A DNA stretch of 64,000 bases from Candidatus Magasanikbacteria bacterium RIFOXYC2_FULL_42_28. Its GTDB lineage: Bacteria > Patescibacteriota > Patescibacteriia > Magasanikbacterales > GWA2-37-8. Shown here one piece after another: positions 2,295-19,309 of the stretch (position 1 is the stretch's first letter; every line of letters begins with the position of its first letter). The notes beneath the pieces are model-generated. The model worked only from the letters and a program-made list of their open reading frames with translations. It was not told the DNA's origin and ran no database searches. The DNA is taken from NCBI GenBank assembly GCA_001784435.1, contig MFQZ01000010.1:169960-233959 (forward strand), in the 5' to 3' direction. The translations under genes were made by a program, and so were the position numbers.

Positions 2295-5200
2295 ATGAAA
2301 AGGAATTTATCACAAAAATTAAAATTCGCTTTCGCTTGGCTCGCCCCTCGTCGCAAATGGGGCATACTTAGCGTGTCCGCGCTGGCGGTTTTAATTTTTG
2401 CCGGCGTTATCCTTACCACCACTCCGGCCGCGGCGGATGTTCTGGATTATGTTAATCGGGCATTTGCTTGGATTAATTTTGCTGTTTCTCGGTTGTTTTT
2501 ATCACTCGCTCTCTTTTTGCTTACTTTTGTTATTCAAATTGCCGGCTATAACGGCTATATTGATTCGGTGGCGGTCAATGTCGGTTGGGTGATGGTGCGT
2601 GACTTGGTTAATATGGCGTTTGTAATATTTTTATTGGTTATCGCTTTTGGCACGATTTTGGGATTGGAACAATACGAATGGAAAAAGTTAATGGTCAAAT
2701 TTGTTTTGGCCGCTATTTTAGTGAATTTTTCCCGCGTGATTTGCGGACTGATGATAGACGTGGCGCAGGTGTTTATGACCACCTTTGTCAATGGCATCGC
2801 GGCCACGGCCGGCGGTAATTTGATAACGGCTTTTTCGGCTGACAAATTGTATAAATTTAACCCCGATACCAATGGCACCGAAATTAACGATACCGAGTCC
2901 TTTATCGCGAGCATCGCGGCGGTGATGTTCGCCGGCATGATGATGATGACGATGTTTGCCATCGCGGTGATGTTACTCGCGCGTTTGGTCGTGCTGTGGG
3001 TGTTGATTGTTTTGTCGCCCATGGCTTTTGCCTTAAATGTTATCCCCAAAACCGAAAAATACGCCCAAGAATGGTGGCAAGAATTTGGTCAAAATTTAGT
3101 CGCCGGTCCGATTTTAATATTTTTTATCTGGTTATCATTGGTAACCGTGGGCGGGGGCGATGTGGCCAAAGAAATTAGCGCGAACAATGTTGTTAAACAA
3201 GATAACAGCCAACAGCCCAAATCCGGCATTTCTGAAGTAATGGAATGGGAAAACATGGCCAGTTTCGCGATTGCCATCGGGATGTTGCTTGTCGGCGCGA
3301 AAATTACCCAGCAAATGTCCCCGCAAGGTGGACAGTTTGTCGGCAAAGCAGCGGAATTTGGGAAGAAGGTGGCAATGGTGGCGGCCGGAGCGACGACTGC
3401 GAAATGGGGGCTGAAAGCCGGTAAGGCAGCGGGTAAATTTGCTTTAATGGAAATACCTTATGGCGGAAATTTTTGGAAAGCGAAAGCAAAAACTGAATGG
3501 GAAAGCGCGAAAACCGCGATGTATGGTAAGGCCGCCGGTATAACCAAGGAAAGTACGGAATTGAATAATGCTGCTGGGGAAAAGCGAGAAAAAGCACAAT
3601 CATTGCGACAACTTGCGAAAACGGAGACCAATGACGTTAAGAAAAAGAAGTATGAAGAAGCAGCTGCTCTTGCTGAGAAAGAAATGGAAGATCTAGAAGC
3701 TCGGGCGCAAGAAGCAATGGCGCCGAGTCGTTTAAGCAAGCGCGGCAAGGCATTAAAGGCGCAAGCTGCCGCGAAGAAAAAAGAGTCCGAAGATTTGCGA
3801 CAACGGGCCGCGACGGCCACAACACCGGAAGCGCAAGCTGATTTGGAAGTCCAAGCCAAAGTCGCTGATACCGAAGCGACTGAATTGCGACGACAACAAG
3901 AAGAAGAAACCACTCGCGGTGGTGGCGGGATTGTTGGGGCAATAGTTAGACAACGCATCGGCTACATGAAGCAATTAAAAAAATCTGAAGGGCAAAGAGA
4001 AATTCGAGAGAAATTAGCTTTTAAAAGGGCATCTGGTGATTCCGGCGGCTGGATTTTTAATCGGTCGGATGGTCAAGTAAAAGATGCTTATCGTTACGAA
4101 AAAGGCATGTTGGAAGTTGAGGAAATGCGCAGTTCGGCCAAAGACAAAGAATATTCCGCGATTGGTAAATCCGGCGCGTTGGGTATGCGTCGCTATCGTG
4201 ATGGCCGTTTTTTGCCGGGTGCTACTATGGCCGAACAGATCGCTAAACATGGCCGTGGTAGCGCGAGAATGGAAAGTGTTTCCAAAACCATTCAAGCGGC
4301 GACCGAGCTAAAGATTGATTTGGCAGCCAAAGCGAAAATTGATGAAGTTGATGTCGCCAAAGCGGCCTTGGATGTTGGTTTGCAAACAACAGCAGAAAAA
4401 GAATTATTAGCGAAAAAAGCGCAAGCCGAAGAAGACGCGAAGACCGCTCAAGAAAGAATAGAAGCGGAATTCGCGCCGGCGATAACAGCGGCGCAGGTGG
4501 CTATTAATGATCCAAAAGCTGAGTTTAATAAAGATGTGGCAAAAGCGGAGGATGATTTAGTAGATTATAGAAAAAATAAAAAGGTAAACGATATATTGAC
4601 GACTGATGAGCAAACAAGGCAAGCTAATTTGGATAAAGAAGCGGCCGATTTGCAGACTGTTATCCAGAATAGTGAGCTTGCGATGCAAGAAGCATTTAAG
4701 AAATACCAGGAAGAACGTCGGGGAATAACTGACGCAGATGCGTTAAAAACAGCAGATGAAAAATTCAAAACAGACCATGGGAAAAGACAGAAAGAGGTTA
4801 ATGACAAAAAGAATGAACTAGAACAATTAGGTTCAAGGAGAAATAAGACAGCGGCAGAAGAAAAACTTGAGAAAAATTTAGAAGATGCTAAAACTGCCAG
4901 AGAGGCAAAAGGTGCCGAAAATGGGTATGATACTGTAAAAAAAGCTTTGGTAGATAAAGAAACAGAAAAACAAGAAAAATTTGAAAAAGCCAGGACCGGA
5001 ATAGTTGCTGCCCAAAAAGCGATCGATGCTTACACCAAAAAAGATCCAACAACAAAGAAGAGTATCCAAGATACTGACCGTGAAGCAGAATTTAAAGCCG
5101 ACCCGACCACCGGCTCTAAAGATTTTGCGACCAGAGAGGCCGAAGTAAAAGCTAGAAAAGCGGCTTTGGAAGCCAGTTTAAATACTGTTCCCGGCGCCGG

Positions 5201-7058
5201 TGATTTTATGGCCGCGGAACGCGCTACGGCAATGGAAGAACATGCCCACGCTGGTAAATTATCCATGCAAGGCGCGGCTTGGGGGTTAAAGGCAATGCAC
5301 GATGTGTTAACGGCGATTGATTTGGGCGAGCAAGGGAAAAAAGCCGGTGAAGAATTTATTAAAACTATCAAAGATAACCATTTAGCTAACTCTTTTAAAG
5401 CCGCGCGCAAAGAAATTGACGCGGTTATCGATAACTGGAAAAAAGCCGGAACCGGACAAATTAAATTTTTGGATGAAGAGGTGCGCCGTTTGAGTGCGCG
5501 CAATGCTTTTGTGGCCGCTTTGAATTATTCTGAAAAAAGCAAGATCACGGCTAAAGATAAAAACATGCGCGAAGCTCAAGCCGCTGATGTGGCTTCTAAC
5601 GCGGTTGTCAATATTCGCAAAGGCCGAGAATTACCGTCCGAAGCGATTGACGCGCTATATGAGGCCGAAGCCAAAGAATTAAGCGGTATGGAACGCGCGG
5701 ACGCGTCGGCCGCGGCCGCGGACACGATGTTTTATTTAATGGCGCAAAAAGAAGCCGGCCATGAATTATCGGCCGATGAAAAATCTTCGATTATGGGCGC
5801 GTGGACTAAGGTAGATTCAGAATCGTGGAATGATGATTTTGCGGATTATTTTATTCGTATGGTGGGTAGACACGAAAGTGGTGACAAGACCCTGACCGGT
5901 CAAAAAAAGGCCATTGCCGAACAGATGGCTAAATTTGCCAAAGATGCTAATTTGAAGTTTGAAAATGAAGTTGTTAATGGTGTAGAAACCGGCAGGAAAA
6001 AATTTGCCGGCGCGTATAATCGCGAAATGTCATCAATGTGGCAGACACTGGCCGCTACCGGTGGCGATACCAAATTATGGAACGCTCATAATGCCATTAA
6101 TCAAGAAGAAAAAGAAATGGGTAGCACCAAGTTTGATAGCAGTGGTGGCTATTGGGGGGCGGCCGAAAGATTGGCCGCGCGGGGTCAACTGGGTGGTTAT
6201 AGTTCAGTGGCTGAAATGGAAGCGGCTTATGGCCAAAATCAAGATGGTCTTAAATTTGCCGCTCGCAAATTTAAAGCCAATGGTATTGGCAATGGGCATT
6301 GGGAGTCGGTATTAAACCAAGAGTTTGATGATAGAAAAGGTATTTATCGGATTAATACCTTAAATACCGCTCAAGGCGGTTCAATTACGGAGATGGGTAA
6401 ACGCACCTTGAACGAATTACTGAAATTTCAGAATCATTCTGCCGGTGATTTTGATTTGACTACCGGGCTGATGCGCTCAATTGATTCTAATTTGTTCGGC
6501 GCGCTTACTGCCCAGATGAAAACTGAAAATGATGTTAAGTTTATGAATTTTCGTTCCATTATTAAATTGTTGGGTGGTCATGAATCTGAAACCGAACTGC
6601 GCACTTCCCGAGGCGGTAAAGATGGTGCTGATACCTATTATCATTTGGGCGGTGAAAAAATGTTGGGCACATTTATCGATAGGTTTGGAGATACCATGGA
6701 AGCGCGAGATAAAATGGATGAGCACCTGTTGGAGAATTTTATGGTTAAGGAGTTGTTGGGGAATAAAAGCGCGACGATGTTACTTTTACAGCGTACAATG
6801 AAATTGAATGATGATGACACAGCGCATGGAAATTTTAGAATTAAATTTGACGGTTCCATTGGTGAAGTTCAAGGTATTGAGGAATTAGTTAAAAAAGTAG
6901 AGGCGTTAAAAGCACAGGGTCGTCTTACTAGTGTTACTCCGGCAATGTTAAAACAGCTTCAAGATATGTTACCAGATTTTAAATCCGGTGTCATTGCCCA
7001 ATCAGGAGATCGTGGTGGCAAGAAAGACAAGAGTGACTCCACTGATTTTGGCGGATAA
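2295..7058 (+). CDS. giant (1587 aa) membrane protein: N-terminal signal/TM plus about 5-6 TM helices (first ~280 aa), then ~1300 aa highly charged Lys/Glu/Ala/Gln-rich predicted coiled coil and a C-terminal globular region; possibly VirB6/TrbL-like
   Basis: Hydrophobic segments visible in the first 280 residues of the translation; long low-complexity KEAQ-rich stretch. The VirB6/TrbL analogy rests on architecture and T4SS-like neighbours only. Confidence 0.45.
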   Translation: MKRNLSQKLKFAFAWLAPRRKWGILSVSALAVLIFAGVILTTTPAAADVLDYVNRAFAWINFAVSRLFLSLALFLLTFVIQIAGYNGYIDSVAVNVGWVMVRDLVNMAFVIFLLVIAFGTILGLEQYEWKKLMVKFVLAAILVNFSRVICGLMIDVAQVFMTTFVNGIAATAGGNLITAFSADKLYKFNPDTNGTEINDTESFIASIAAVMFAGMMMMTMFAIAVMLLARLVVLWVLIVLSPMAFALNVIPKTEKYAQEWWQEFGQNLVAGPILIFFIWLSLVTVGGGDVAKEISANNVVKQDNSQQPKSGISEVMEWENMASFAIAIGMLLVGAKITQQMSPQGGQFVGKAAEFGKKVAMVAAGATTAKWGLKAGKAAGKFALMEIPYGGNFWKAKAKTEWESAKTAMYGKAAGITKESTELNNAAGEKREKAQSLRQLAKTETNDVKKKKYEEAAALAEKEMEDLEARAQEAMAPSRLSKRGKALKAQAAAKKKESEDLRQRAATATTPEAQADLEVQAKVADTEATELRRQQEEETTRGGGGIVGAIVRQRIGYMKQLKKSEGQREIREKLAFKRASGDSGGWIFNRSDGQVKDAYRYEKGMLEVEEMRSSAKDKEYSAIGKSGALGMRRYRDGRFLPGATMAEQIAKHGRGSARMESVSKTIQAATELKIDLAAKAKIDEVDVAKAALDVGLQTTAEKELLAKKAQAEEDAKTAQERIEAEFAPAITAAQVAINDPKAEFNKDVAKAEDDLVDYRKNKKVNDILTTDEQTRQANLDKEAADLQTVIQNSELAMQEAFKKYQEERRGITDADALKTADEKFKTDHGKRQKEVNDKKNELEQLGSRRNKTAAEEKLEKNLEDAKTAREAKGAENGYDTVKKALVDKETEKQEKFEKARTGIVAAQKAIDAYTKKDPTTKKSIQDTDREAEFKADPTTGSKDFATREAEVKARKAALEASLNTVPGAGDFMAAERATAMEEHAHAGKLSMQGAAWGLKAMHDVLTAIDLGEQGKKAGEEFIKTIKDNHLANSFKAARKEIDAVIDNWKKAGTGQIKFLDEEVRRLSARNAFVAALNYSEKSKITAKDKNMREAQAADVASNAVVNIRKGRELPSEAIDALYEAEAKELSGMERADASAAAADTMFYLMAQKEAGHELSADEKSSIMGAWTKVDSESWNDDFADYFIRMVGRHESGDKTLTGQKKAIAEQMAKFAKDANLKFENEVVNGVETGRKKFAGAYNREMSSMWQTLAATGGDTKLWNAHNAINQEEKEMGSTKFDSSGGYWGAAERLAARGQLGGYSSVAEMEAAYGQNQDGLKFAARKFKANGIGNGHWESVLNQEFDDRKGIYRINTLNTAQGGSITEMGKRTLNELLKFQNHSAGDFDLTTGLMRSIDSNLFGALTAQMKTENDVKFMNFRSIIKLLGGHESETELRTSRGGKDGADTYYHLGGEKMLGTFIDRFGDTMEARDKMDEHLLENFMVKELLGNKSATMLLLQRTMKLNDDDTAHGNFRIKFDGSIGEVQGIEELVKKVEALKAQGRLTSVTPAMLKQLQDMLPDFKSGVIAQSGDRGGKKDKSDSTDFGG

Positions 7059-7085: not shown

Positions 7086-8540
7086 ATGAAAACAAAATTA
7101 TACAATTATCTGTATAATACCGGCGTGCCGATAAATGAGGTGTATACACCTTTATTGGCGTTGGCGAATAAATTTGCTTCGCCGTCGTCGAATAATTTTT
7201 GGCAAACCATTATTACTGTTTCTGATTATATGAAGGCGCGGTACCAAACAGAACAATGGTATCCGGAAAAGATTATTTTTGGTTTAGTAGAGTGGAAAAC
7301 CGCGAGTGATTTAGCCGCGTCTTTGGAGGCGATTGACCGTTTGCTCGCGCGTTCGGGCGTGTCGCTGGTGGACAACACTAAAACACGCGGTAAGTTTATT
7401 GGTTTAGAGTTGAATGATGCCACCTTAAAACATTGGGCCAGCGCTTATGATCTTGCCGATTCGGTTGTTAAAAATCGCGTTGATAGTGAGTTGCCGATAG
7501 CACTATCGCTTTTTGCGCGTCTTAACATTCAATTTCAAACCGTGGGCATGCTCATCAATTTACCGCTTGGCCCGGCTCTTTATTCTAAGGCAGAAGTGAA
7601 TAATTTTGTTAATGTTGGGGGGGCGGACTGTGATTTTGCTCGTTTGGTTTTCACTTTGCGGGAAATGTCAATTACCGATGCTCGCCACGAGGTCTATGTG
7701 ATTGTTAAAGAATTTTTATTAGCCGACCATTGTTTGAATAATGAAAATTTAGAATGGGAACAGGCGGTCTTATTGGTTTGGTCTTTGGGATTTATGTTTA
7801 ATGAATTTGAACGTTTGTCCTCCGAAGACCAGATTTGGTTAATCAATAATTATTATTATCGAGCGTTTGCGATTGGCGTGCCTTTAAAAATAATTTTACA
7901 ATCATACCTTCTATCATCGCGTTGGGTAGTTGAATATGTGCGGAAATGTTCGGCTTTAATTTTAAATATTGAGAATAATTCTGAAAATGTTTATTTTGGC
8001 GGTGAAGAAAATAATTCTGCCTTTGGTTTAATCAGCGCCGAATATCACCGTCGATTAGCGGACAAAATATCCGAGGGGCTGTCGGATCAAACTGTGGCCG
8101 AGGCCTTTGTTGCCGGTTTATTTGGCGGTGGATACGACGAGAGCGCGCCCACGTATTATCATTGGCTACAAGAAGCGTTAATAGTATACGTCGGCTTGAA
8201 AGAATCGACTTTGGTGGATTGGCTGAAAGATGGCGACTCACCGTTAAATTATGAAAATCGCGGAGAGTTGATCAAATTGTTGACTTATTTTGTTTATGGC
8301 GGAGAGTTTGTCAAGTTGGTGGAATATTTCCAAGATAAAAAATCAAAAGTTCCATTTAAAATATTTTTAAATTATATAAAAGACGCTGTTGATTTGTCGG
8401 TTGACGTGATTATTCAGAATTGTCTAGCGTTTGCCGAAGTGATGCGCGACAATGGTTTGCTATCTTCGGACGATGACCTAATCGAATATCACCAGGAGGA
8501 TGGCCAATTTTATTGGAATAAAAAATTGTTAAAACAGTAA
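7086..8540 (+). CDS. hypothetical soluble protein, paralog of the next gene
   Basis: Shared segments: LSSEDQIWLINNYYYRAFAIGVPLKIIL here versus LSSETQIELIKKFTLKALCWGVPLDKVL in the 8544 gene. Tightly linked, same strand. Confidence 0.5.
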   Translation: MKTKLYNYLYNTGVPINEVYTPLLALANKFASPSSNNFWQTIITVSDYMKARYQTEQWYPEKIIFGLVEWKTASDLAASLEAIDRLLARSGVSLVDNTKTRGKFIGLELNDATLKHWASAYDLADSVVKNRVDSELPIALSLFARLNIQFQTVGMLINLPLGPALYSKAEVNNFVNVGGADCDFARLVFTLREMSITDARHEVYVIVKEFLLADHCLNNENLEWEQAVLLVWSLGFMFNEFERLSSEDQIWLINNYYYRAFAIGVPLKIILQSYLLSSRWVVEYVRKCSALILNIENNSENVYFGGEENNSAFGLISAEYHRRLADKISEGLSDQTVAEAFVAGLFGGGYDESAPTYYHWLQEALIVYVGLKESTLVDWLKDGDSPLNYENRGELIKLLTYFVYGGEFVKLVEYFQDKKSKVPFKIFLNYIKDAVDLSVDVIIQNCLAFAEVMRDNGLLSSDDDLIEYHQEDGQFYWNKKLLKQ

Positions 8541-8543
8541 ATT

Positions 8544-9722
8544 ATGTCGGCATTTTATTTTTTACAATCATCTAGTCCGGAGACGTGGAAACAACGCGTC
8601 GATTTGTTGATAAGAATTGGGATGATAGCCGACGATTTATTTTTGGGGAAATGGGAGAATGATTCTGTCTGGGGCTGGTCAAAATTTTTAGTAGCTGATT
8701 TGGCAAAATTTAATAAAGAAAAGATTCCGTCTGATTGGCGGTATCAGTCGTTTTTTTACGCGTTGGTTGGTTTTTTGGATTTTTCTCTACTTGAAAAAAT
8801 TACCAATGAGTTGGATAAGTTGGCGCGTATTAAAATTGGCCCGGCATCAAAGGGGGCGACAATCATTAGTACTGTTTCTGAAGAATGGAACGCTTTGGGT
8901 GATTTTTTGGATTTGACACCAGCTGGCGGGGGTATTTTGAGGAACAAAGTAAGCGGATTAACGGCCGTTGAATTAGAAAAATTAACAGCCGATATGCGTG
9001 TGTTAGCGGATGATTATAATGATTTTCGCATTGTTTTTAAATTTGTGGCGACCGCGTTGCTTTATCATATTCCGCCCGTGCCGGCAGTTGATTTGGATGG
9101 TTTTAAATATGCTGTGTCGGTTCAAGCCGAACAGAAAAAAAATGATTTTAGTATTGATCACGGATTGCTTTGCACTAATTTTTTAGGGTGGTCGTTTTTA
9201 AAGCGGGATGAAAAAGTGATGCGTTGGGCCGCGGAATATCTGCGACAGTTTTCCGTCGAATCGATTAAATATGATAGTCCGTTTGATTTGATTTTTTTAA
9301 TTGGTATTTTACATTTAGCTTTTTATAATTTTACCGGATTATCATCTGAAACACAGATTGAGCTGATTAAAAAATTTACTCTGAAAGCGCTCTGTTGGGG
9401 GGTGCCGCTAGACAAAGTGTTGTTATCCAAGTCGGGCGAAGGATTGTCTGTCGCCACCGGCCCAAAAAATACGAGAGCGCTGTTTACTGCTTTAGAAAAT
9501 AGTGAGGAGACAATGAATTTTGGTTCTGATAAAGTTTTAATGAATGTTGGGCAATTTGTTAAGCAATTTTTATTGTCGGCTCATCGTGATTATGGGGGAT
9601 ACGCGCAGACCGAATATGTTGGAGACGCGATCAGAGAAAATCATTGGCCAGATGGCGCGCGTGTTTATTTATTCGCACTTTTAAAATGTTGTTTATATTT
9701 AAAAGCCGGCAGTTCCGCTTGA
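8544..9722 (+). CDS. hypothetical soluble protein, paralog of the 7086 gene
   Basis: See the previous feature; 4-nt intergenic gap. Confidence 0.5.
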   Translation: MSAFYFLQSSSPETWKQRVDLLIRIGMIADDLFLGKWENDSVWGWSKFLVADLAKFNKEKIPSDWRYQSFFYALVGFLDFSLLEKITNELDKLARIKIGPASKGATIISTVSEEWNALGDFLDLTPAGGGILRNKVSGLTAVELEKLTADMRVLADDYNDFRIVFKFVATALLYHIPPVPAVDLDGFKYAVSVQAEQKKNDFSIDHGLLCTNFLGWSFLKRDEKVMRWAAEYLRQFSVESIKYDSPFDLIFLIGILHLAFYNFTGLSSETQIELIKKFTLKALCWGVPLDKVLLSKSGEGLSVATGPKNTRALFTALENSEETMNFGSDKVLMNVGQFVKQFLLSAHRDYGGYAQTEYVGDAIRENHWPDGARVYLFALLKCCLYLKAGSSA

Positions 9723-9806: not shown

Positions 9807-9899
9807 AAAACCTTTTAAGCATCCTTAAAAGGTTTTGTAAAAATAGGGTATGGCAGACGCGATTAGATACTTGACAGCGATGTGGTTAAATGTTACAAT
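9807..9899 (+). promoter_or_regulatory. copy 1 of palindrome+promoter element: aaaaccttttaag-catc-cttaaaaggtttt inverted repeat followed by TTGACA-N17-TACAAT
   Basis: Inverted repeat at 9807-9838; -35 TTGACA at 9871-9876 and -10 TACAAT at 9894-9899, read directly. Related copies at 11341 and 13074. Confidence 0.5.
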
Positions 9900-9932
9900 A
9901 ATAGGTATATATATACTTATAAATGTAAACTT

Positions 9933-11330
9933 ATGGAAATCTCGCTTATTTTAGAGGAAATTACTCGACAGAATAAGTTCTGGGCGCGAGAAAAACAGCG
10001 TGATTTTTTTGGTAATAATACGTTTAAACGTGAATTGTACCCACGGCTTGTCGCTTTACTGACCGATCGGCTAATTATTTCGATCGTTGGATTGCGACGT
10101 GTTGGTAAAACAGTTTTACTCAAACAATTAATTGGGCATTTGATAGATAATGACAAAGTTGAACCGCGCAATATTTTATTTTTAAGTTTTGATGAAGCGA
10201 TGCTGAGTTCGGCTGTCAAACTCGACGATTACTTGCGGATTTATTTAAGCCATTTTCAGGCGCGACGCACCGGGCGTTTGTATATTTTTTTAGATGAAAT
10301 TCAATATGCGCCCGAGTGGCAACATATTTTAAAACGATTTTATGACACCGAACCGAATATTAAATTTATTATTTCCGGTTCGTCCTCGCTTTTTTTAAAA
10401 AAGAAAGCGACCGAAAGTTTAGTTGGTCGGATTTATGAATTTAATTTACCGGTATTAAGCTTTGTGGAATATTTGGAATTGGCCCAAGTTTTTTCCGCCA
10501 ACTTGTCAATTTTTAAATCTTTGCTATGTGATATCAAGGCGGGATCGAAAGATTGGTTGAAATTAGACGTCGCCAGAAAGATTTTTTTGTCCGAGCATTC
10601 ACTTTGGTTGGCCGGACAATTTGATGAATATTTACTACGTGGACAATTTCCCGAAGTGGTAGGCGAAAAAGATATTGTTAAAATTGAAAGATATTTACGT
10701 GAATCAGTTTATAAAAAAACCATTGAATTTGATATCCCACGGTTATTTGGCGCTGATAAGGTTGGTGATTTAAAATTTATTTTTCAAGTCCTGGTTAACG
10801 AAACAGGTAATCAGTTTGAAGTTGGCAATCTGGCCCAAGAGGCGCAGATCGATCAAAAAACTCTTACTCGCTATTTATCTTTTTTTGAAGAAAGTTTGTT
10901 GGCGCGGATTTTATATAACTATTCGCGCTCATTGCGTAAAACCCATCGCCAGCCCAAGAAGATTTATATTAGTAGTACTAATTTTTATCCGTTGGACTTG
11001 GCTACGCCGCTTGAAACCCGCGGTGCAATTTTGGGGCATTTAGCTGAAACGCATGCCTGCAATTTATTGCGAGCGCGTTTTGATAATTTATCATTTTATC
11101 GTGTGCGGAAACAGGAAGTTGATTTTATTGGAGCGGACAACTGGTTGGATCGGTCATCCTATCGCTTAATTGAAGTAAAATATCGGTCTGATGTCAGTCG
11201 ACAAAGGTTTGTGTTTTTGGAAAATACCGCTAAGCGTTTTGGTGTTGGTCGGTTGCCGGTGGTTTTAACAAAATATGAATTTGGCGTTTCAGAAAAATTA
11301 GCGTTGGTGCCGTTATTTATGATAAAGTAA
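9933..11330 (+). CDS. AAA+ ATPase of the COG1373/DUF4143 type (Walker A GLRRVGKT, Walker B IFLDEIQ)
   Basis: Motifs visible in the translation. Start moved from the track's 9882 to the ATG at 9933 (MEISLILEE) because the promoter -10 ends at 9899. Confidence 0.6.
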   Translation: MEISLILEEITRQNKFWAREKQRDFFGNNTFKRELYPRLVALLTDRLIISIVGLRRVGKTVLLKQLIGHLIDNDKVEPRNILFLSFDEAMLSSAVKLDDYLRIYLSHFQARRTGRLYIFLDEIQYAPEWQHILKRFYDTEPNIKFIISGSSSLFLKKKATESLVGRIYEFNLPVLSFVEYLELAQVFSANLSIFKSLLCDIKAGSKDWLKLDVARKIFLSEHSLWLAGQFDEYLLRGQFPEVVGEKDIVKIERYLRESVYKKTIEFDIPRLFGADKVGDLKFIFQVLVNETGNQFEVGNLAQEAQIDQKTLTRYLSFFEESLLARILYNYSRSLRKTHRQPKKIYISSTNFYPLDLATPLETRGAILGHLAETHACNLLRARFDNLSFYRVRKQEVDFIGADNWLDRSSYRLIEVKYRSDVSRQRFVFLENTAKRFGVGRLPVVLTKYEFGVSEKLALVPLFMIK

Positions 11331-11340
11331 TACTAAGTGT

Positions 11341-11451
11341 TTTTAAGTACATTTAAAAGGTTTTGAAAAAATAGGGGAGTTTTTGGGCATAAAGAGTTAT
11401 CCACAGAGGTAGTTTGACATTTTTAACTGTTTTAAGTATACTTAAAACATA
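11341..11451 (+). promoter_or_regulatory. copy 2 of palindrome+promoter element (degenerate palindrome, TTATCCACAG box, TTGACA-N17-TATACT, palindromic ttttaagtatacttaaaa over the -10)
   Basis: TTATCCACAG at 11397-11406, -35 at 11414-11419, -10 at 11437-11442. The perfect palindrome ttttaagtatacttaaaa at 11431-11448 is a candidate operator. Confidence 0.5.
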
Positions 11452-11477
11452 GCATAAAAATATGAAATGTTTTAAGT

Positions 11478-12692
11478 ATGTTTAAAGAATATATCAAAAG
11501 AGAGGTTTATGTTAATAAAATTCGTCCTTTTATCGGCAAGGATATTATTAAGGTTTTAGTTGGCCATAGACGGGTCGGTAAGAGTTATTTGTTGTATCAG
11601 ATAATGGATGAAGTCAAAAACCAAGATTCAAAAATAGAGATTGTGTATATTAATAAGGAGTTAAATGATTTTGCCGATATTGTTGATCATCAGAGCTTGC
11701 TTAAATATATTGATTTAAAAAAAAATAAAAATAGTGGCGGAAAAACCGCGCTATTTATCGACGAAGTGCAGGACATTATTAATTTTGAAAAGGCCCTGCG
11801 TCACCTAAACGCCTCCGGGCAGTTTGATATTTATTGTACAGGCAGTAATGCTAAATTGTTATCAGGCGAGTTGGCGACTTTTTTGTCCGGTCGGTATATA
11901 GAAGTTGAAGTGCGCGGTTTGTCGTACAATGAATTCTTGGAATTTCATAAATTGGCAAAAGGTAAAGAATCTCTATTTCGTTATATTAAATATGGCGGTT
12001 TACCATATTTAATTAATTTACCACCGGAAGACGATGCCGTGTATGATTATTTGCGCAACATTTATAACACTATCGTTTTAAAAGATGTGGTCGAGCGTTT
12101 TAGATTAAGGAATGTAAATTTGCTGGAAAGATTGATTGAATATCTTGCGGATAATGTTGGTAGTTTGGTTTCAGCCAATAATATCAGTGATTTTTTAAAA
12201 TCGCAAAAAATTAAAATTTCACCGAATACCATTTTAAATTATCTGTCATATTTGGCGGCGAGTTATTTTATTTATAAAGTTCCGCGGCTAGATATTGTGG
12301 GAAAGAAAATTTTTGAGGTTAATGATAAATTTTATTTTGAGGATTTAGGATTAAGGCATGTGGTGGTTAATTACAAACAATCGGATATTAATAAAATTTT
12401 AGAAAATTTAGTGTTTTCGCATTTGAAATATATTGGTTATGAGGTTAAGGTCGGCCAATTGGGCCAGCAGGAAATTGATTTTGTAGCAAGCCGGGGTGAG
12501 GCGCGGGTTTATGTGCAAGTGGCTTACTTGCTAAATAGCGAGGCGGTCAAGCAACGAGAGTTTGGCAATTTATTAAAAATTGATGATAATTATAAAAAAA
12601 TAGTGGTGAGTATGGATGATTTTGGCGGGGGGAATGTTAGCGGTATCGAGCAGTGGAATGTCGTAGATTTTTTATGTGATTTTCTCGGGTAG
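11478..12692 (+). CDS. second AAA+ ATPase of the COG1373/DUF4143 type (Walker A GHRRVGKS, Walker B LFIDEVQ)
   Basis: Motifs in the translation; paralogous architecture to the 9933 gene. Confidence 0.6.
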   Translation: MFKEYIKREVYVNKIRPFIGKDIIKVLVGHRRVGKSYLLYQIMDEVKNQDSKIEIVYINKELNDFADIVDHQSLLKYIDLKKNKNSGGKTALFIDEVQDIINFEKALRHLNASGQFDIYCTGSNAKLLSGELATFLSGRYIEVEVRGLSYNEFLEFHKLAKGKESLFRYIKYGGLPYLINLPPEDDAVYDYLRNIYNTIVLKDVVERFRLRNVNLLERLIEYLADNVGSLVSANNISDFLKSQKIKISPNTILNYLSYLAASYFIYKVPRLDIVGKKIFEVNDKFYFEDLGLRHVVVNYKQSDINKILENLVFSHLKYIGYEVKVGQLGQQEIDFVASRGEARVYVQVAYLLNSEAVKQREFGNLLKIDDNYKKIVVSMDDFGGGNVSGIEQWNVVDFLCDFLG

Positions 12693-12716
12693 AATTAAAA
12701 TAATTATGAATTTATT

Positions 12717-12962
12717 ATGAAAACTATAATAGAAATAGACCGAAAGCAAGATGAAGTAATCCGCCTTCACTTATCCAATGACGACTATGATGATTTTGGC
12801 TGGATAGACATGTGGACGACCAAAGAAAAAGAGGGGGATGAGCCGGAGCAGAGTGAAACCGTGAATTTTTTCATTGACGATTTACGCGCGGCTCTAGAAG
12901 GATTTGTGGCGCAAAGAGAGTTGCAACATAAGCGAGATCAGATGTTGAAAGAAAATGAGTAG
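12717..12962 (+). CDS. small acidic hypothetical protein (81 aa)
   Basis: ORF only; no motif recognised. Confidence 0.35.
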   Translation: MKTIIEIDRKQDEVIRLHLSNDDYDDFGWIDMWTTKEKEGDEPEQSETVNFFIDDLRAALEGFVAQRELQHKRDQMLKENE

Positions 12963-12989
12963 ACAAGTTGATAATTTTGAGATTTAATT

Positions 12990-13075
12990 TTTGGCAATAC
13001 TGTGCTATAATATATCCATGACCAATAATGCTTCACCGACAATTTTAGTCAAAAAATCCGACGGCACGTTCACAA
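12990..13075 (+). repeat. about 85-bp duplicate of the promoter and first ~20 codons of the gene at 14619 (copy at 14610-14695)
   Basis: gctataatatatccatgaccaataatgcttcaccgacaattttagtcaaaaaatccgacggcac versus ggtataatatacctatggacaataataccaaacaaccaacaattttagtcaaaaaatccgacggcac, read directly. The upstream copy runs into the palindromic element and a stop. Confidence 0.75.
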
Positions 13076-13178
13076 AACCTTTTAAGCACCCTTAAAAGGT
13101 TTTGTAAAAATAGGGGAAATTTTAAGTATAAAGTTATCCACAGCACCGTTTGACTTATCAGTGTTATTTTGGTAAATT
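13074..13178 (+). promoter_or_regulatory. copy 3 of palindrome+promoter element (perfect aaaaccttttaag-cacc-cttaaaaggtttt, TTATCCACAG, TTGACT-N17-TAAATT)
   Basis: Palindrome at 13074-13105; TTATCCACAG at 13134-13143; -35 at 13150-13155. Confidence 0.5.
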
Positions 13179-13197
13179 AGCACAATATACTAATTTT

Positions 13198-13782
13198 ATG
13201 AAATGGATTGATTTTGAGAAAAGTATTAAAGATAAAGATATTAAGTTATTTACACCGCGCGATGTAAGTGTTTTTTTGGGTCGCTCAACAATTGCTGTGC
13301 GATTTTTAATGCATCGCCTAAAACAAAACGGACAAATTATGGGGGTTAAGCGCGGTCTTTATAAATTATCCGGTCAACTCGTACCTGATTATTATTTGGC
13401 TAATAGAATTTACGCTCCCTCCTATATTTCTTTAGAATCGGCGTTGTCATATTATGGTGTTATTCCGGAAACCGTATATGAAATTACGTCAGTAACTTCT
13501 AAAATTACTCGTCGTTTTGAAACCGCCGGAAAAATTTTTTCTTATCATAAAATTAAACAATCTGCTTTTACCGGTTATGGTATAGCGCACCAAGACGGAG
13601 CAAATTTTTATTTGGCTGACGCGGAAAAAGCGTTTATAGATGTGTGTTATCTGCGGTTATTGGCGGGCCGAGAGTCGATATCTCGTTTTGACAAAACAAA
13701 GCTTAATAAGGAGAAAACTTTAAGTTATGCTGATTTGTATAAAAATAAAAAATTAGTTGCGACTATTCGTAAATTATTATGA
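13198..13782 (+). CDS. abiEi: AbiEi-like antitoxin/transcriptional regulator (type IV TA, COG5340-like)
   Basis: About 195 aa with an N-terminal wHTH-like region and SLESALSYYGVI segment. It overlaps the downstream AbiEii-like gene by 4 nt. Start taken at 13198, downstream of the promoter; the track gives TTG at 13150. Confidence 0.5.
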   Translation: MKWIDFEKSIKDKDIKLFTPRDVSVFLGRSTIAVRFLMHRLKQNGQIMGVKRGLYKLSGQLVPDYYLANRIYAPSYISLESALSYYGVIPETVYEITSVTSKITRRFETAGKIFSYHKIKQSAFTGYGIAHQDGANFYLADAEKAFIDVCYLRLLAGRESISRFDKTKLNKEKTLSYADLYKNKKLVATIRKLL

Positions 13783-14540
13783 TTACCAAAGATTATATTG
13801 AGAAATTAGCAAAGCTTGGCCATGTTGCAACATTTCCAAATATCGCGAGAGAGTATTTTCAGCATGTTTTTTTGTCAAATTTAAGTCAGATTCCTGGTGG
13901 GGAAAAGTTATTGTTTAAGGGTGGTACGGCCTTGCGAATAGTTTATGGTAGTCCGCGTTTTTCCGAAGATTTAGACTTTTCTTTGTTCGGCGTCTCGCAC
14001 TCGCTCGTTAATAAATTTGTGGAAGATATTTTTCTGAAGATTTTATCTGAAATTGAAAGGACTGGGATTAAGGTTGAATTGGGTAAAAAAAGCGGAGAAA
14101 CAAGCGGCGGATATTTTGGTGTGGCATCGTTTCGGTTCTATGATTATCCTTTGATTGGCGTTGAGATCAATGTATCCGCGCGAGGAACCAAGCAGTTGGC
14201 CGGGGAAGCAGATAGTATCGTTAGCGATTTTGCGCCGGCGTATTCGTTATTGCATTTACCGCAAATTGTTTTGGTTGAAGAAAAAATATTTGGCGCTTTA
14301 CTGGAACGCAAAAAACCACGTGATTTTTATGATTTGTATTTTATTATGCGCAAAGGAATGCTAACGAATGAGCAGAAACAGCGATTATCAACGGTCAAAA
14401 ATAAAATAATCGCGAGTGCCAAGAAGATCGATTTTCGATATGAACTCGGTGTTTTTTTACCTTCTGACCAGCAATTGATTGTACGGGATTTTTCAGCAGT
14501 TTTAGAGCGGGAGTTAAATAGACAATTAGCAAAAATCTGA
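13779..14540 (+). CDS. abiEii: AbiEii-like nucleotidyltransferase toxin (DUF1814 family)
   Basis: N-terminal LLFKGGTALRIVYGSPRFSEDLDFS matches the family's conserved GGTAL / RFSEDxDF signature as I recall it. Size about 250 aa; operon overlap with the upstream antitoxin. Confidence 0.65.
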   Translation: MITKDYIEKLAKLGHVATFPNIAREYFQHVFLSNLSQIPGGEKLLFKGGTALRIVYGSPRFSEDLDFSLFGVSHSLVNKFVEDIFLKILSEIERTGIKVELGKKSGETSGGYFGVASFRFYDYPLIGVEINVSARGTKQLAGEADSIVSDFAPAYSLLHLPQIVLVEEKIFGALLERKKPRDFYDLYFIMRKGMLTNEQKQRLSTVKNKIIASAKKIDFRYELGVFLPSDQQLIVRDFSAVLERELNRQLAKI

Positions 14541-14618: not shown

Positions 14619-15665
14619 TTGTGGTATAATATACCTATGGACAATAATACCAAACAACCAACAATTTTAGTCAAAAAATCCGACGGCACCTTCGCGCGGA
14701 TGTCTTTGGGGGAGATAAAAAAGATGAAAGTGGGTAAAATTACAGCACCGTCGTCTGTCATCCTGAATGAAATGAAGGATCCCTTGAAGTTGGCAGTAAG
14801 GGATTCTTCGGTCGCTACGCTTCCTCAGAATGACAATAACAAAAAAGTCGGAATGACAGGTAAAGACGCCAAGTCGCTTTTAGAAGAAGACAAATTGGTA
14901 GCCCCGGGCACGAGCGTTGCCGTTGGCCGAAATAATCAGGTGGACACGGTAATTAAAAAACTATCATTTTCCGTCGCGTCTAATTTTTTCAATCGTTTGC
15001 GGAGCGCGATTCAGTTGCGTTTAAAAGATGTACGCGGGGAAAAAGAAACACGCGCCACGGTGTTGCGTTCTATAAAAGACGGGGGACTGGGCTTGACTGA
15101 AACCCAAGCCAACGAATTGGAGCAAGTGTGCGCGACGGTGGGTAATTTATTGGCGCGACCACCGGCTAAAAGTAAAACTGATTTAATGGTTGAAGATCAA
15201 ATTTTACCGCAAACGTTTCACAAAATGCCTGTGCCGGCGAAAATGGCTCCACATAACGCGTTTGTGCATGAGGAATTTTTAAAAAAAGAAGAAAAATTTA
15301 AAATTAGTCCAGTGGCTGTTAGCCGACCGGCGATGAAGGATGTGGTTGCCGCCGCCGCGCCGGTCGGGCCGGTGGAGGAAATTAAATTTTTTACCCTAAC
15401 TGATTTTCGGCGTTTGGCCCAAGACCCTAACCAAGCCACCAAACGTTTGGCGCAAAAATTTATTAATTTGCGTGAAGAATCAGTTTTGTTATTTTGGCAG
15501 GCCTTGGATGCCTGGAAGCAAAGCCCGTTATTTGCCGACTATGTTGGTGTATTAAATCGAGTTTTTATCGGTAAAGTCGCGTCTGATCAGCAAAAAACGA
15601 GTGACCAGATAACCGATGTTGAGATAAAGGCGCTTATCGCGATGGAAAAAGATTTGGTAATCTGA
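14619..15665 (+). CDS. hypothetical protein (348 aa); its promoter and 5' end are duplicated upstream of the AbiE cassette
   Basis: ORF only; no motif recognised. Confidence 0.4.
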   Translation: MWYNIPMDNNTKQPTILVKKSDGTFARMSLGEIKKMKVGKITAPSSVILNEMKDPLKLAVRDSSVATLPQNDNNKKVGMTGKDAKSLLEEDKLVAPGTSVAVGRNNQVDTVIKKLSFSVASNFFNRLRSAIQLRLKDVRGEKETRATVLRSIKDGGLGLTETQANELEQVCATVGNLLARPPAKSKTDLMVEDQILPQTFHKMPVPAKMAPHNAFVHEEFLKKEEKFKISPVAVSRPAMKDVVAAAAPVGPVEEIKFFTLTDFRRLAQDPNQATKRLAQKFINLREESVLLFWQALDAWKQSPLFADYVGVLNRVFIGKVASDQQKTSDQITDVEIKALIAMEKDLVI

Positions 15666-15677
15666 TATAATAATGTT

Positions 15678-16106
15678 ATGGAGCAATTTACCGTCCCACA
15701 ATTTTTAGATGTTGAAGATAAAATTTTTGGCCCGATTACCACGCGCCAATTTGTGATTTTGCTCGCCACCGGTTTATTTCTGTTTATTGCTTACAAATTG
15801 GCTGATTTTGCGTTGTTTATCACTCTGTTCGTATTTATTGGCGGATTTGCCGTAATTTTGGCGTTTGTTAAAATTAACGGCCAGACCTTCCATTATTTTT
15901 TACTGAATATAATTCAAACCATGCGTCGCCCCAGCCGCCGGTTGTGGCAGAAACGTTATACCGACCAAGAATTAAAAGCAATGGCCGCCGGACCGAAAAA
16001 AGAAATGTTAGAGGCGCCGTCTCCTATTCCCAATCTTTCCAATAGCCGCATTCGCGCCTTGTCGCTCGTCGTTAATACCGGTGGATATTTTAAATATGAA
16101 GAATAA
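15678..16106 (+). CDS. small 2-TM membrane protein, PrgI/VirB3-like candidate
   Basis: 142 aa with two hydrophobic helices (LLATGLFLFIAYKL..., LFITLFVFIGGFAVILAFV). Sits immediately upstream of a VirB4-like ATPase, as PrgI/TcpE do in Gram-positive T4SS. Assignment is by context and architecture. Confidence 0.35.
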   Translation: MEQFTVPQFLDVEDKIFGPITTRQFVILLATGLFLFIAYKLADFALFITLFVFIGGFAVILAFVKINGQTFHYFLLNIIQTMRRPSRRLWQKRYTDQELKAMAAGPKKEMLEAPSPIPNLSNSRIRALSLVVNTGGYFKYEE

Positions 16107-16782
16107 AGCTGTCGCCAAAAAGAAAGTCGCTTTGATATCCGCGCAAAAACATTTGTTTATCGCGGAAATTAAGCAAGATACGGTGATTTTAAAAGACGGC
16201 ACTTTGCGCGCGGTTTTAATGGTGTCCAGTTTGAACTTTGCGTTGAAAAATGAAGACGAGCAAACCGCGATTGTCTCATCGTATGTTGGCTTTTTAAATT
16301 CACTTGATCATCCTTTGCAAATTTTAATTCAGTCACGCGAACTTTATATTAAACCGTATTTAGACGATTTAGCCAAACATGAACATGAACAAACTAACGA
16401 ACTATTGCGCACGCAAATCGCCGATTATCGGTCATTTGTGTCGGAGTTGGTTGAGCTCGGACAAATTACCAGCAAACAATTTTATGTGGTTGTGCCCTAT
16501 GATCCTTTGAGTAATAAAAAACGCAGTTTTTGGTCGCGGGCACAGGAAGTATTGAATCCGATTTCGGCCGTAAAATTAAAAGATGAGAAATTTTTACAAC
16601 GCAAATATGATTTAGATCAGCGAGTGCGTTTGGTAGAGTCAGGGTTGTCCAGTATGGGGTTGGAAGTGAAACGGCTTGATACCCAAACTTTGATTGAATT
16701 GTATTTTTCGTCGTATAATCCGGATATTGCTTTAAGTGAACATTTGCCGGAAATTAATAAAATTCAGGTAGAAGAAGAATAG
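16081..16782 (+). CDS. hypothetical soluble protein in the T4SS-like operon (possibly a split-off N-terminal VirB4 domain)
   Basis: Overlaps the upstream gene and ends 1 nt before the ATPase gene. The VirB4-like ATPase downstream lacks the long N-terminal domain of canonical VirB4. Confidence 0.3.
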   Translation: MDILNMKNKAVAKKKVALISAQKHLFIAEIKQDTVILKDGTLRAVLMVSSLNFALKNEDEQTAIVSSYVGFLNSLDHPLQILIQSRELYIKPYLDDLAKHEHEQTNELLRTQIADYRSFVSELVELGQITSKQFYVVVPYDPLSNKKRSFWSRAQEVLNPISAVKLKDEKFLQRKYDLDQRVRLVESGLSSMGLEVKRLDTQTLIELYFSSYNPDIALSEHLPEINKIQVEEE

Positions 16783-16783
16783 T

Positions 16784-18646
16784 ATGGCCTTCAAACCAGT
16801 ATTCACCAATAAACCGGCGCTAGATAAAGCCAAAATTGCTCTGGAGCAAAAGACCGAAGCGGAGTTGATTACGCTTGAAGAAGAGCGGATTTATCGCGAG
16901 GGCGTGGTTTCAATTAAGGATTTAATTGCTCCGGCGGCTTTTAATGTTGAAAAAGATCATTTGGAATTGGGCACGACATATTGCCGCACCATGTTTATTG
17001 TCAGTTACCCACGTTATATCAGCGTCGGTTGGAGCTCGCCGGTAATAAATTTGTCCGTCAATATGGACATCACCATGTTCTTTTATCCGGTTAAATCAGC
17101 TATTATTTTGAAACAGTTAAGAAATAAAACCGGCGCTTTGCAAGCTCAAATTACCGCTGATTCGGAAAAGGGCGCCCCGCGCGACCCACTCCGTGAAACG
17201 GCTTTGCGCGATGTGGAAGAATTACGCGACAGTTTGACGCAGGGCACGGAACATTTTTTTCAATTTGCTTTTTACGTTACGATTTATACCCAAGACAAAA
17301 CCCGTTTGGATCAATTGTCCGAAGATATCGAAAACATGTTCGGCAGTAAATTAATTACGAGTCGTAAAGTTTTATACCAAGCCGAACAGGGTTTTAATTC
17401 TACCTTACCGCTTTGCAATGACGAACTGATGATCGCGTTCAACATGAATTCCAGTCCGATCGCCGCTTCCTTTCCGTTTATTTCGGCCGAACTTACCTCG
17501 GATGATGGTATTTTATACGGCATTAATCGCCACAACAACAGTTTGATTTTGTTTGACCGGTTTTCGCTTCAAAACGCCAATATGGTGGTGTTTGCCACTT
17601 CCGGCGCGGGTAAAAGCTATGCCATCAAATTGGAAATTTTGCGCTCGATGATGCTTGGCGTGGAAGTGATTGTGATTGATCCGGAAATGGAATATAAACA
17701 TTTGTCCGACGCGGTGGGTGGGACTTACATTAATATTTCGCTTTCGTCAGAAAGTAAAATCAATCCTTTTGATTTGCCACGGCCACGCGAACGCGACACG
17801 CCCGTGTCTGATATTATTCGGGGCGCGGTTATCACTGTCAAAGGTTTGCTTCGGATTATGTTGGGCGGTTTTACTACTCAAGAGGACTCCATTATTGACC
17901 GCGCTTTGATTGAAACCTACGCCAAAAAAGATATTACGCCGGAAGCGGATCTGTCGGCTGTCAAACCACCGATAATGCAGGATTTGCAAGAAATTTTAGA
18001 AGGCATGACCGGCGCGGATGAATTGGTTTTAAAATTGCAAAAATATACCGAAGGCACTTTTGCCGGGTTATTTAATTCGCCCACGAATGTTGACACTAAA
18101 AATCAATTAGTGGTATTTTCCGTGCGTGATTTGGAAGATGAATTGCGCCCGATGGCGATTTACGCCATTGTTAATTACATTTGGAATACGGTGCGGTCGG
18201 AGCGTAAAAAACGTTTGTTAATTATTGACGAGGCCTGGTGGCTCATGATGCACGAAGACAGCGCTCGTTTTATTCACGCGCTGGTTAAACGTTGTCGCAA
18301 ATATTTTTTGGGTGTTACAACCATTACCCAAGATGTGAATGACTTTTTGGGTTCTAAATACGGACAGGCGATTGTTACTAACTCGGCTTTGCAGTTGCTT
18401 TTGCGTCAATCGCCCGCGGCTATTGATAACATTCAAAAAACATTTTTGCTTACGGACAGCGAAAAATATCTGTTGCTGGAATCAGGTCCGGGTGAGGGGA
18501 TATTTTTTGCTGGCTTGAAACACGCGGCGATAAAAGTGGTGGCGTCGTATACCGAAGATCAAATAGTTACCACTAATCCGGAACAGTTATTACAAATTGA
18601 ACAGTCCAAAAAAGAATTTGAACAGATGAATAAAATTCCGAGTTAA
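16784..18646 (+). CDS. VirB4/TraC/PrgJ-like conjugative/T4SS ATPase
   Basis: Walker A FATSGAGKSY and Walker B RLLIIDEAWWL in the translation. The C-terminal ATPase domain arrangement is typical of the VirB4 family. Confidence 0.6.
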   Translation: MAFKPVFTNKPALDKAKIALEQKTEAELITLEEERIYREGVVSIKDLIAPAAFNVEKDHLELGTTYCRTMFIVSYPRYISVGWSSPVINLSVNMDITMFFYPVKSAIILKQLRNKTGALQAQITADSEKGAPRDPLRETALRDVEELRDSLTQGTEHFFQFAFYVTIYTQDKTRLDQLSEDIENMFGSKLITSRKVLYQAEQGFNSTLPLCNDELMIAFNMNSSPIAASFPFISAELTSDDGILYGINRHNNSLILFDRFSLQNANMVVFATSGAGKSYAIKLEILRSMMLGVEVIVIDPEMEYKHLSDAVGGTYINISLSSESKINPFDLPRPRERDTPVSDIIRGAVITVKGLLRIMLGGFTTQEDSIIDRALIETYAKKDITPEADLSAVKPPIMQDLQEILEGMTGADELVLKLQKYTEGTFAGLFNSPTNVDTKNQLVVFSVRDLEDELRPMAIYAIVNYIWNTVRSERKKRLLIIDEAWWLMMHEDSARFIHALVKRCRKYFLGVTTITQDVNDFLGSKYGQAIVTNSALQLLLRQSPAAIDNIQKTFLLTDSEKYLLLESGPGEGIFFAGLKHAAIKVVASYTEDQIVTTNPEQLLQIEQSKKEFEQMNKIPS

Positions 18647-19261: not shown

Positions 19262-19273
19262 CATTCGATTCGT

Positions 19274-19309
19274 TTGTCATTCCCGTGAAAATGGGAATCC
19301 AGTCGTCAA
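19274..19309. repeat. TGTCATT-family palindromic element (ttgtcattcccgtgaaaatgggaatccagtcgtcaa)
   Basis: Near-identical copy at 61844-61879: ctgtcattcccgcgaaagcgggaatccagtcgtcaa. It overlaps the likely comFC start codon. Confidence 0.7.

Follow-up and report, generated by a model that had tools for sequence, protein, structure and literature searches.

Is a protein of 1587 amino acids (aa) that escapes the thresholds of curated protein families the VirB6-type subunit of a type IV secretion system (T4SS), and what might its very long hydrophilic tail do there? The question is raised by a 64-kb stretch of DNA from Candidatus Magasanikbacteria bacterium RIFOXYC2_FULL_42_28 (the window), in which the protein is encoded by one unbroken open reading frame (ORF; 2295-7058, + strand). 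The window is chromosomal, with genes for L10, MreB, a class II aminoacyl-tRNA synthetase, SecA, DUF4012 and other housekeeping genes. An earlier reading of this ORF (the original prediction) had proposed a VirB6/TrbL-like membrane domain extended by a coiled-coil fibre or stalk. Our analyses indicate that the giant gene likely encodes the extended-VirB6 polytopic subunit of a chromosomal, monoderm-type Patescibacteria T4SS (MPF-FATA-like; MPF, mating-pair formation), with a tail that differs considerably from the one proposed.

A large part of bacterial diversity belongs to the Patescibacteria, also called the candidate phyla radiation (CPR). In Ca. Southlakia epibionticum, the one species tested, the T4SS proved essential for epibiotic growth. 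VirB6 has been found in a minority of loci, with only 480 VirB6 proteins against 2,474 virB4 genes in a survey of the group (PMC12102498). The extended-VirB6 category, the Patescibacteria T4SS and its VirB6 are already known. What is new here is an extended VirB6 specific to CPR: standard thresholds miss its membrane domain, and a conserved domain of no known fold is part of its tail.

A large family of giant proteins

An exhaustive profile search with the N-terminal domain recovered 25,437 cluster representatives at E<=1e-3 and 9,545 at E<=1e-30, compared to just 29 relatives from a word-indexed homologue search, which missed most of the family. The top 150 profile matches are nearly all 900-1900 aa long, with the domain placed N-terminally. 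Every named relative examined is annotated ‘hypothetical protein’ and comes from Candidatus Magasanikbacteria or Parcubacteria (CPR); the family can now be read as one of VirB6-type subunits. We also surveyed 80 species-representative genomes, almost all from Magasanikbacteria or the Patescibacteria group (best identity 64%). All complete orthologues (69/69) are between 910 and 1873 aa long, with a median of 1125 aa, and the Magasanikbacteria form of the VirB6-type subunit is always giant. Shorter, divergent relatives (566-681 aa) from other CPR lineages sit in the equivalent operon slot.

The varying combinations in which modules occur among these relatives could suggest that the length of the ORF is an artefact of annotation or assembly, e.g., of genes fused in error or of two genes read through as one. 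This explanation is effectively refuted by the conservation data: the 69 complete orthologous ORFs come from different species assemblies, the same architecture recurs across independent NCBI, ENA, JGI and Logan assemblies, and the reading frame is continuous with conserved ends.

Many of the species-representative metagenome-assembled genomes that carry the CPR operon (L010, L011, L013 and other loci) are titled ‘uncultured Gammaproteobacteria bacterium’. These names are probably defaults or errors of labelling, because the VirB6-like genes of these genomes share 45-61% identity with their Magasanikbacteria counterparts.

A conserved T4SS operon downstream

The giant gene is followed on the same strand by genes for PrgI (VirB3-like), a TraC-like/TrsD-type protein and a VirB4-family ATPase (Table 1). 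Three loci from independent assemblies share this gene order (giant, two to three unknown ORFs, PrgI, TraC-like, VirB4, a ~200-aa protein, ComF), and tblastn against three loci found every operon partner to be orthologous. Of 54 species loci with enough flanking sequence, 48 have PrgI, TraC-like/TrsD and VirB4 on the strand of the giant gene and downstream of it (median distance 2.6-3.8 kb). The pairing of VirB3 with VirB4 by which a T4SS cluster is recognised was therefore found in the window, in the three loci of the same order and in those 48 species loci. The same order, with VirB6 called as such, is given for another Patescibacterium in the supplement to PMC12102498. Neither a relaxase nor a coupling-protein gene was seen in the operon, and the conserved operon contains no second VirB6 candidate, leaving the giant protein to fill the channel-subunit slot. 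Promoter and terminator scans gave enrichment insufficient to define operon boundaries.

The original prediction had asked whether other T4SS loci of CPR genomes encode similar giants, and these loci do. The T4SS-like neighbours on which the original prediction leaned are also real, with PrgI/VirB3, TrsD and VirB4 all nearby, but they are not adjacent: the giant gene is separated from them by 8.6 kb, compared to a giant-to-PrgI gap of 1.8-5.5 kb in 48 other loci. The distance is explained by an inserted cassette of ~4.7 kb (9882-14540), which is not part of the T4SS. The cassette has no counterpart in the related loci L001, L003 and L005 (tblastn), and is therefore taken to be an insertion in this genome.

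The small TraC-like ORF uses a GTG start and overlaps the end of prgI by 26 nucleotides (nt). Its orthologues are called PF26593 TraC-like, and a separate TrsD gene has been described for the Patescibacteria T4SS (PMC12102498). We considered whether VirB4 might be a ‘split’ pseudogene and rejected this, as the small ORF is a conserved, separate TrsD gene in all related loci examined. The 199-aa protein encoded after VirB4 is a divergent VirB8-like candidate, judging from its N-terminal helix and weak domain match. Linkage to comF and VirB8-like genes are features of T4SS loci in ABY1-class Patescibacteria (PMC12102498).

A diverged VirB6/TrbL-like membrane domain

Hydrophobic segments are confined to aa 20-341 of the giant protein (Kyte-Doolittle, whole protein). 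Hydropathy gives 7-8 segments and AlphaFold2 (AF2) models of the membrane domain, built with 16 relatives, show seven long helices after a signal-like helix, with a core predicted local distance difference test (pLDDT) score of 70-90; TrbL/VirB6 proteins are characterized by five or more hydrophobic helices. The original prediction had placed a signal or membrane helix and 5-6 further helices within the first ~280 aa. Such a cluster is present, and only at the N-terminus, but it extends to ~aa 341 and comprises ~7 helices in addition to the signal-like one. AxA-like motifs occur at the equivalent place in relatives, and aa 1-47 are probably a cleavable signal peptide or an N-terminal anchor, with cleavage predicted from the motif. 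The membrane domain proper has a series of conserved motifs (GW.MVRD..NM, AAILVNFSR, TAGGN, R..LW.LI.LSP.AF, P.T.KYA..WW.EF, GP...FF.WL).

Homology to proteins with a TrbL-type Pfam domain was found by way of four CPR proteins (P0027, P0028, P0175 and P0176) that carry PF19590, named TrbL_3. The giant protein matches P0027 and P0028 directly (E~1e-13), a hidden Markov model (HMM) built from giants only matches all four (E 4.5e-21 to 5.6e-37, for 1.84e9 sequences), and hhalign aligns the giants with the TrbL_3 set at 100% probability over 262 columns. In turn, the TrbL_3 set aligns with the family of TrwI, the VirB6 protein of plasmid R388, at P=5.4e-4 (30% probability, 148 columns).

Matches to curated families point in the same direction. 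When 33 giants were compared with 43,686 models, only two families recurred (more than one match), the CD3337/EF1877 mobilome membrane protein and Pfam TrbL. The former is matched by 8/33 giants (best E=8.4e-5) and provides the one match of the giant protein itself in a direct Pfam/NCBIfam scan (17.8 bits, aa 199-284). Sub-threshold matches to Pfam TrbL were found in 4/33 giants and 2/7 divergent members (best 19.4 bits, E 1.9e-4 to 1e-3). Further sub-threshold matches of relatives are to membrane proteins of Mycoplasma integrative and conjugative elements (ICEs) and to a conjugal transfer protein, all of them conjugative polytopic proteins. At the level of predicted structure, the best 5 of 350,542 PDB chains found by Foldseek are all TrwI/VirB6 (probability 0.99-1.0).

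Several results weigh against this assignment. The giant protein has no match to PF04610 at E<=0.1 (gathering score 25.9 bits), and every match to a curated HMM within the family falls below the curated cut-off. Sixteen close relatives scanned singly against curated families gave nothing useful. Aligned directly with the TrwI family by hhalign, the family reaches only 11% probability (P=0.003, 48 columns), and 7% with a single TrwI sequence; the TrwI-family reference alignment, which we built ourselves, is narrow (>=51% identity to TrwI). Scores against it are 26-31, a modest gain over shuffle and reversal controls (maximum 22.1 in 20 block shuffles). The family profile retrieved no VirB6/TrwI from the PDB sequences, just two chance matches. 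Foldseek E-values are 4e-3 to 1.4e-2, with template modelling (TM) scores of 0.22-0.38 and root-mean-square deviations of 9-12 A, and mean pLDDT in the model of the membrane domain is just 65. Of the two observations that had been named as jointly fatal to the VirB6 assignment, a missing TrbL/VirB6 profile match and an incompatible membrane topology, the first was thus made.

One could conclude that the membrane domain is no VirB6 homologue at all, and that an unrelated, CPR-specific polytopic protein was recruited to the T4SS operon, with the signals above reflecting convergence or a bias towards helical membrane proteins. The lack of any above-threshold match to a curated TrbL/VirB6 model or of a PDB sequence-profile match to TrwI, the poor hhalign probability and the low TM-scores would all fit such a scenario. 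We regard it as very improbable, as the weak matches come from independent proteins and libraries and converge on conjugative VirB6-type proteins, with no other membrane families among them, the top Foldseek matches are all VirB6, the link to TrbL_3-annotated proteins is robust, and the conserved operon offers no other VirB6 candidate. Based on the TrbL_3 link, the recurrent matches to conjugative proteins, the TrwI folds, synteny and the absence of another VirB6 from the operon, the membrane domain is very probably a highly diverged member of the TrbL/VirB6 superfamily. The VirB6/TrbL-like N-terminal domain of the original prediction therefore stands on these lines of evidence, but not on PF04610.

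A modular tail with a conserved C-terminal domain

The remaining 1245 aa form a hydrophilic C-terminal tail with no further hydrophobic segment and no cysteine. This agrees with the proposed long hydrophilic extension, though not quite with its estimated length of ~1300 aa. The extension had further been described as dominated by K, E, A and Q in a heptad-like pattern and as a possible long fibre or stalk. These residues make up 38-58% of the sequence only over aa 400-1100, and 24-39% beyond aa 1100. To score heptads we used a frame-consistent a/d score compared to shuffles, with the adjacent 129-aa protein (1884-2273) as a positive control (mean score 0.75). In the tail, only three stretches of ~35-40 aa each (aa 344-381, 407-443 and 971-1011) exceed the 99th percentile of the shuffles. 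A canonical coiled-coil fibre is not supported, given the lack of sustained heptads and the AF2 model, which shows hairpins, bundles and a globular domain.

According to sequence conservation and the AF2 model of the tail (aa 401-1587, 34-sequence alignment, mean pLDDT 71), the tail is modular and ends in a conserved, large, predicted globular domain (Table 1). BLAST comparison with 172 relatives shows conservation of aa 540-670 in ~30 relatives and of aa 1000-1550 in ~30 (up to 44% identity), with almost none covering aa 700-1000. Iterative HMM searches extended these numbers, finding the middle module in 55/142 long relatives and 25/69 genome orthologues, and the C-terminal module in 61/142 and 33/69, respectively. 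Within the variable spacer, AF2 confidently predicts a bundle of three long helices (aa ~770-870; nt 4602-4904). The C-terminal domain has conserved polar residues, comprising a W-x-D-D motif (W1178, D1180, D1181) as well as His, Lys, His and Arg (H1335, K1369, H1381, R1420).

Attempts to relate the C-terminal domain to known proteins were negative: there is no Pfam/NCBIfam match for this protein or 33 relatives, nothing was found among PDB sequences (phmmer), the best Foldseek match to PDB folds has E=0.27, and viral predicted structures gave no match (TM ~0.08). A tblastn search of 72,556 plasmids with both domains of the giant protein also found nothing. The tail was considered as a type IV coupling protein (T4CP; VirD4/TcpA) and rejected, as Pfam/NCBIfam scans of this protein and 33 relatives found neither an FtsK/VirD4-type P-loop nucleoside triphosphatase nor a T4CP match. 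A tape-measure-like reading was dropped as well (TM ~0.08). Foldseek finds a weak, non-significant likeness of aa ~480-720 to Vipp1/PspA filaments (E 1.3-3, probability up to 0.77), and a Vipp1/PspA/ESCRT-III-like reading of this part was likewise dropped at these E-values.

Topology of the tail

On which side of the membrane the tail lies was assessed from charge distributions. Across 176 relatives, loops 173-198 and 286-317 carry a net negative charge, and the NFSR kink and loop 240-255 a net positive one. A mean of 9.5 K+R vs. 2.7 D+E is found in the 60 aa that directly follow the last helix (166 relatives). Given the positive-inside rule and assuming that the signal peptide is cleaved, the basic post-helix segment and the loop charges predict an N-terminus outside, seven helices and a C-terminus inside, and the tail is probably cytoplasmic. 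A caution against this topology comes from R388, in which only two VirB6 helices cross the membrane and most are located above it (PMC12857230); a topology based on hydropathy, and hence the cytoplasmic tail, may mislead.

This caution also favors an alternative in which the membrane domain is VirB6-like and the tail extracellular, with the spacer crossing the envelope and the C-terminal domain serving as the host-contact tip or adhesin of an episymbiont. Such a tip would replace VirB5/pilus-tip functions, which are absent from monoderm systems. A spacer highly variable in length and sequence next to a conserved end domain would suit a distance-spanning stalk, the tail is free of cysteine, and the Patescibacteria T4SS is essential for epibiotic growth, with a host-directed role proposed (PMC12102498, PMC12857230). 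However, the strongly basic segment after the last helix and all of the decisively charged loops fit N-out/C-in, TrwI likewise ends in a basic G/A-rich segment, heptads are lacking, and Pfam/NCBIfam and DNA-repeat scans found no adhesin, cell-wall-binding or repeat domains. We therefore consider an extracellular tail unlikely, and the charges that place the tail in the cytoplasm also argue against the external fibre or stalk originally suggested.

Proposed role of the giant VirB6-like protein

If the tail is indeed cytoplasmic, the following model can be proposed. By analogy with TrwI/VirB6 of R388 (PMC12857230), the membrane domain would oligomerise, probably as a pentamer, at the centre of a membrane complex above VirB3, TrsD and VirB4, and could form part of the translocation channel or platform. 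The 1245-aa tails would hang into the cytoplasm and serve beside the VirB4/TrsD ATPases as a scaffold or docking platform. There they might recruit or gate substrates, which is usually the role of a coupling protein. The end domain could bind or process substrates or parts of the machine, e.g., the products of the conserved downstream paralogues.

More speculatively, the C-terminal ~560-aa domain may be a new module grafted onto VirB6, acting in place of the coupling protein as a substrate receptor or enzyme in the cytoplasm or, if exported, as a host-contact tip; we hold this idea only tentatively. The giant VirB6 would be of greater interest if the domain were a substrate receptor or a host-contact element, as this would provide a handle on what an essential, non-conjugative system moves, and how. 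In either case, the conserved tail domain is the obvious place to seek substrate recognition or host contact.

Neighbouring genes and features of the window

Directly 3' of the giant gene are two paralogous genes (7086-9722), whose products had no family matches in Pfam/NCBIfam scans. Orthologues of the pair occupy the equivalent position in L001 and L005, and the two proteins are candidate partners of the giant tail. In the cassette that follows, AbiEi/AbiEii constitute a type IV toxin-antitoxin pair, and each ATPase gene is closely preceded by a near-consensus sigma-70-like site, at 9871-9899 (11/12, with TG) and 11414-11442 (11/12). The window also encodes a 1000-aa Type ISP restriction-modification enzyme (48371-51373; N6 methylase plus Type_ISP_C specificity domain) which, together with the AbiE pair, amounts to several defence genes in a small genome.

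The 129-aa protein encoded directly upstream of the giant gene (1884-2273) is a textbook heptad coiled coil. Its gene includes a 21-nt tandem repeat (1989-2062, 3.5 copies of the unit AAATCCGATGTGGCCATCTTG) that encodes LKSDVAI repeats, and none of the three related loci compared encodes a counterpart of the protein. Further upstream, a 548-aa Cys-rich protein (69-1715) resembles the C-terminal part of a 2731-aa protein (29% identity, E=5e-48) whose gene precedes that of the giant VirB6-like protein in a related Magasanikbacteria locus (L001, 222-8417). Because of this resemblance, a second very large, possibly secreted protein may be loosely linked to the operon. All 2-kb bins of the window have a positive GC skew and the + strand carries nearly all long ORFs, as would fit a single replichore read along the direction of replication.

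Table 1. Coordinates of the giant gene, its predicted parts and the genes downstream (window positions).
Feature	Position	Strand	Evidence
Whole gene: likely extended VirB6/TrbL-like T4SS membrane protein, 1587 aa	2295..7058	+	Single ORF; orthologues of 910-1873 aa in 69 species-representative genomes
aa 1-47: basic N-terminus, hydrophobic helix, AxA-like motif (TPAAA|D)	2295..2435	+	Hydropathy segment aa 20-50
aa 48-341: polytopic VirB6/TrbL-like membrane domain, ~7 predicted helices	2436..3317	+	Hydropathy, AF2, invariant columns, Foldseek, TrbL_3 link, CD3337/EF1877 match (aa 199-284)
aa 342-481: basic K/G/A-rich juxtamembrane segment and low-confidence linker	3318..3737	+	Low pLDDT at aa 401-452
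aa 482-541: confidently modelled helical hairpin	3738..3917	+	AF2 helices H82-107 and H111-141 of the tail model, pLDDT 82-96
aa 540-670: conserved middle module, low structural confidence	3912..4304	+	BLAST coverage in ~30/172 relatives
aa 671-1009: variable K/E-rich helical spacer	4305..5321	+	Conserved in only 4-9/172 relatives; composition; AF2
aa 1010-1570: predicted globular, mostly alpha C-terminal domain (~560 aa)	5322..7004	+	AF2 pLDDT 80-97
Two paralogous soluble proteins, 484 and 392 aa, no family match	7086..9722 (7086-8540, 8544-9722)	+	Paralogy E=2e-8
Inserted cassette, ~4.7 kb: two AAA_14/DUF4143 ATPases and AbiEi/AbiEii toxin-antitoxin pair	9882..14540	+	Pfam/NCBIfam matches
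348-aa conserved operon partner, immediately upstream of PrgI	14619..15665	+	Orthologues in L001, L003, L005 and in 50/54 genome loci
PrgI (VirB3-like) T4SS membrane protein	15678..16106	+	PF12666 E=3.4e-11; downstream in 48/54 loci
TraC-like/TrsD-type small protein resembling the VirB4 N-terminus, separate gene	16081..16782	+	TraC_F_IV E=2.8e-4
VirB4-family T4SS ATPase	16784..18646	+	P-loop_TraG E=5e-29, AAA_10, DUF87; orthologues 74-77% identical
199-aa protein, N-terminal transmembrane helix, possible NTF2-like domain	18662..19261	+	Weak CaMKII_AD match E=7.6e-4; position kept in 35/54 loci
ComF-type protein (double zinc ribbon and phosphoribosyltransferase), end of conserved block	19249..20007	+	DZR_2, Pribosyltran; kept in 27/54 loci

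Comparison with known systems

Among characterized proteins, the closest comparison is with VirB6/TrbL (TrwI of R388; PDB 7O3V, 8RT9, 8RTD; related Pfam families TrbL PF04610, TrbL_3 and TrbL_4). Both have a polytopic helical domain, and the genes of both lie in T4SS clusters that include VirB3 and VirB4. TrwI is the best PDB fold match of the giant membrane domain, a motif block at aa ~224-272 of the giant (LSP..P.T.KY..WW) aligns with TrwI 164-211 (LGP..P.THRF..W), and in both proteins the last hydrophobic helix leads into a basic, G/A-rich segment. The giant differs in that its similarity lies below all curated thresholds, its membrane domain is preceded by a signal-peptide-like helix, and it is ~4.6x longer than TrwI (342 aa). 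Its system, unlike that of R388, is chromosomal and belongs to a monoderm CPR bacterium, with an operon that contains no relaxase or coupling-protein gene.

The CD3337/EF1877 protein (NF046089) and the Mycoplasma ICE membrane proteins (NF045889, NF045848) are likewise polytopic and come from conjugative elements of monoderms. Matches to CD3337/EF1877 are recurrent and weak, with aa 199-284 of the giant corresponding to profile positions 298-383. At 18-23 bits vs. cut-offs of 70-120, however, the giant is not a member of these families.

With the Patescibacteria T4SS (Quinonero-Coronel et al. 2025, PMC12102498) the locus shares the operon logic of VirB6, PrgI/VirB3, TrsD and VirB4, the ABY1-class features (comF linkage, a VirB8-like gene) and a chromosomal location; that survey does not mention giant or extended VirB6 forms.

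Extended VirB6 is a recognised category of proteins in which hydrophobic helices are combined with one or more large hydrophilic domains of unknown role (PMC12857230, PMC7648143), and the comparison originally drawn with VirB6 proteins carrying long hydrophilic extensions was apt. Sizes in the category reach 4,322 aa in Anaplasma VirB6-4 (PMC7648143), with 700-900 aa in VirB6 of MPF-FA systems. The giant protein resembles them in having five or more hydrophobic helices and a very large hydrophilic C-proximal extension (PMC12857230, PMC7648143), and its 1245-aa tail agrees with the definition of a membrane domain joined to a large hydrophilic domain (PMC12857230). In contrast to the Rickettsiales and MPF-FA forms, it comes from a CPR monoderm lineage with another class of T4SS, and its tail ends in a conserved, confidently modelled ~560-aa domain; unlike in the Rickettsiales, a gene-wide scan of its DNA found no tandem repeats. 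The giant protein would thus add an example from outside the Rickettsiales, and one without repeats, to the poorly understood extended-VirB6 architecture.

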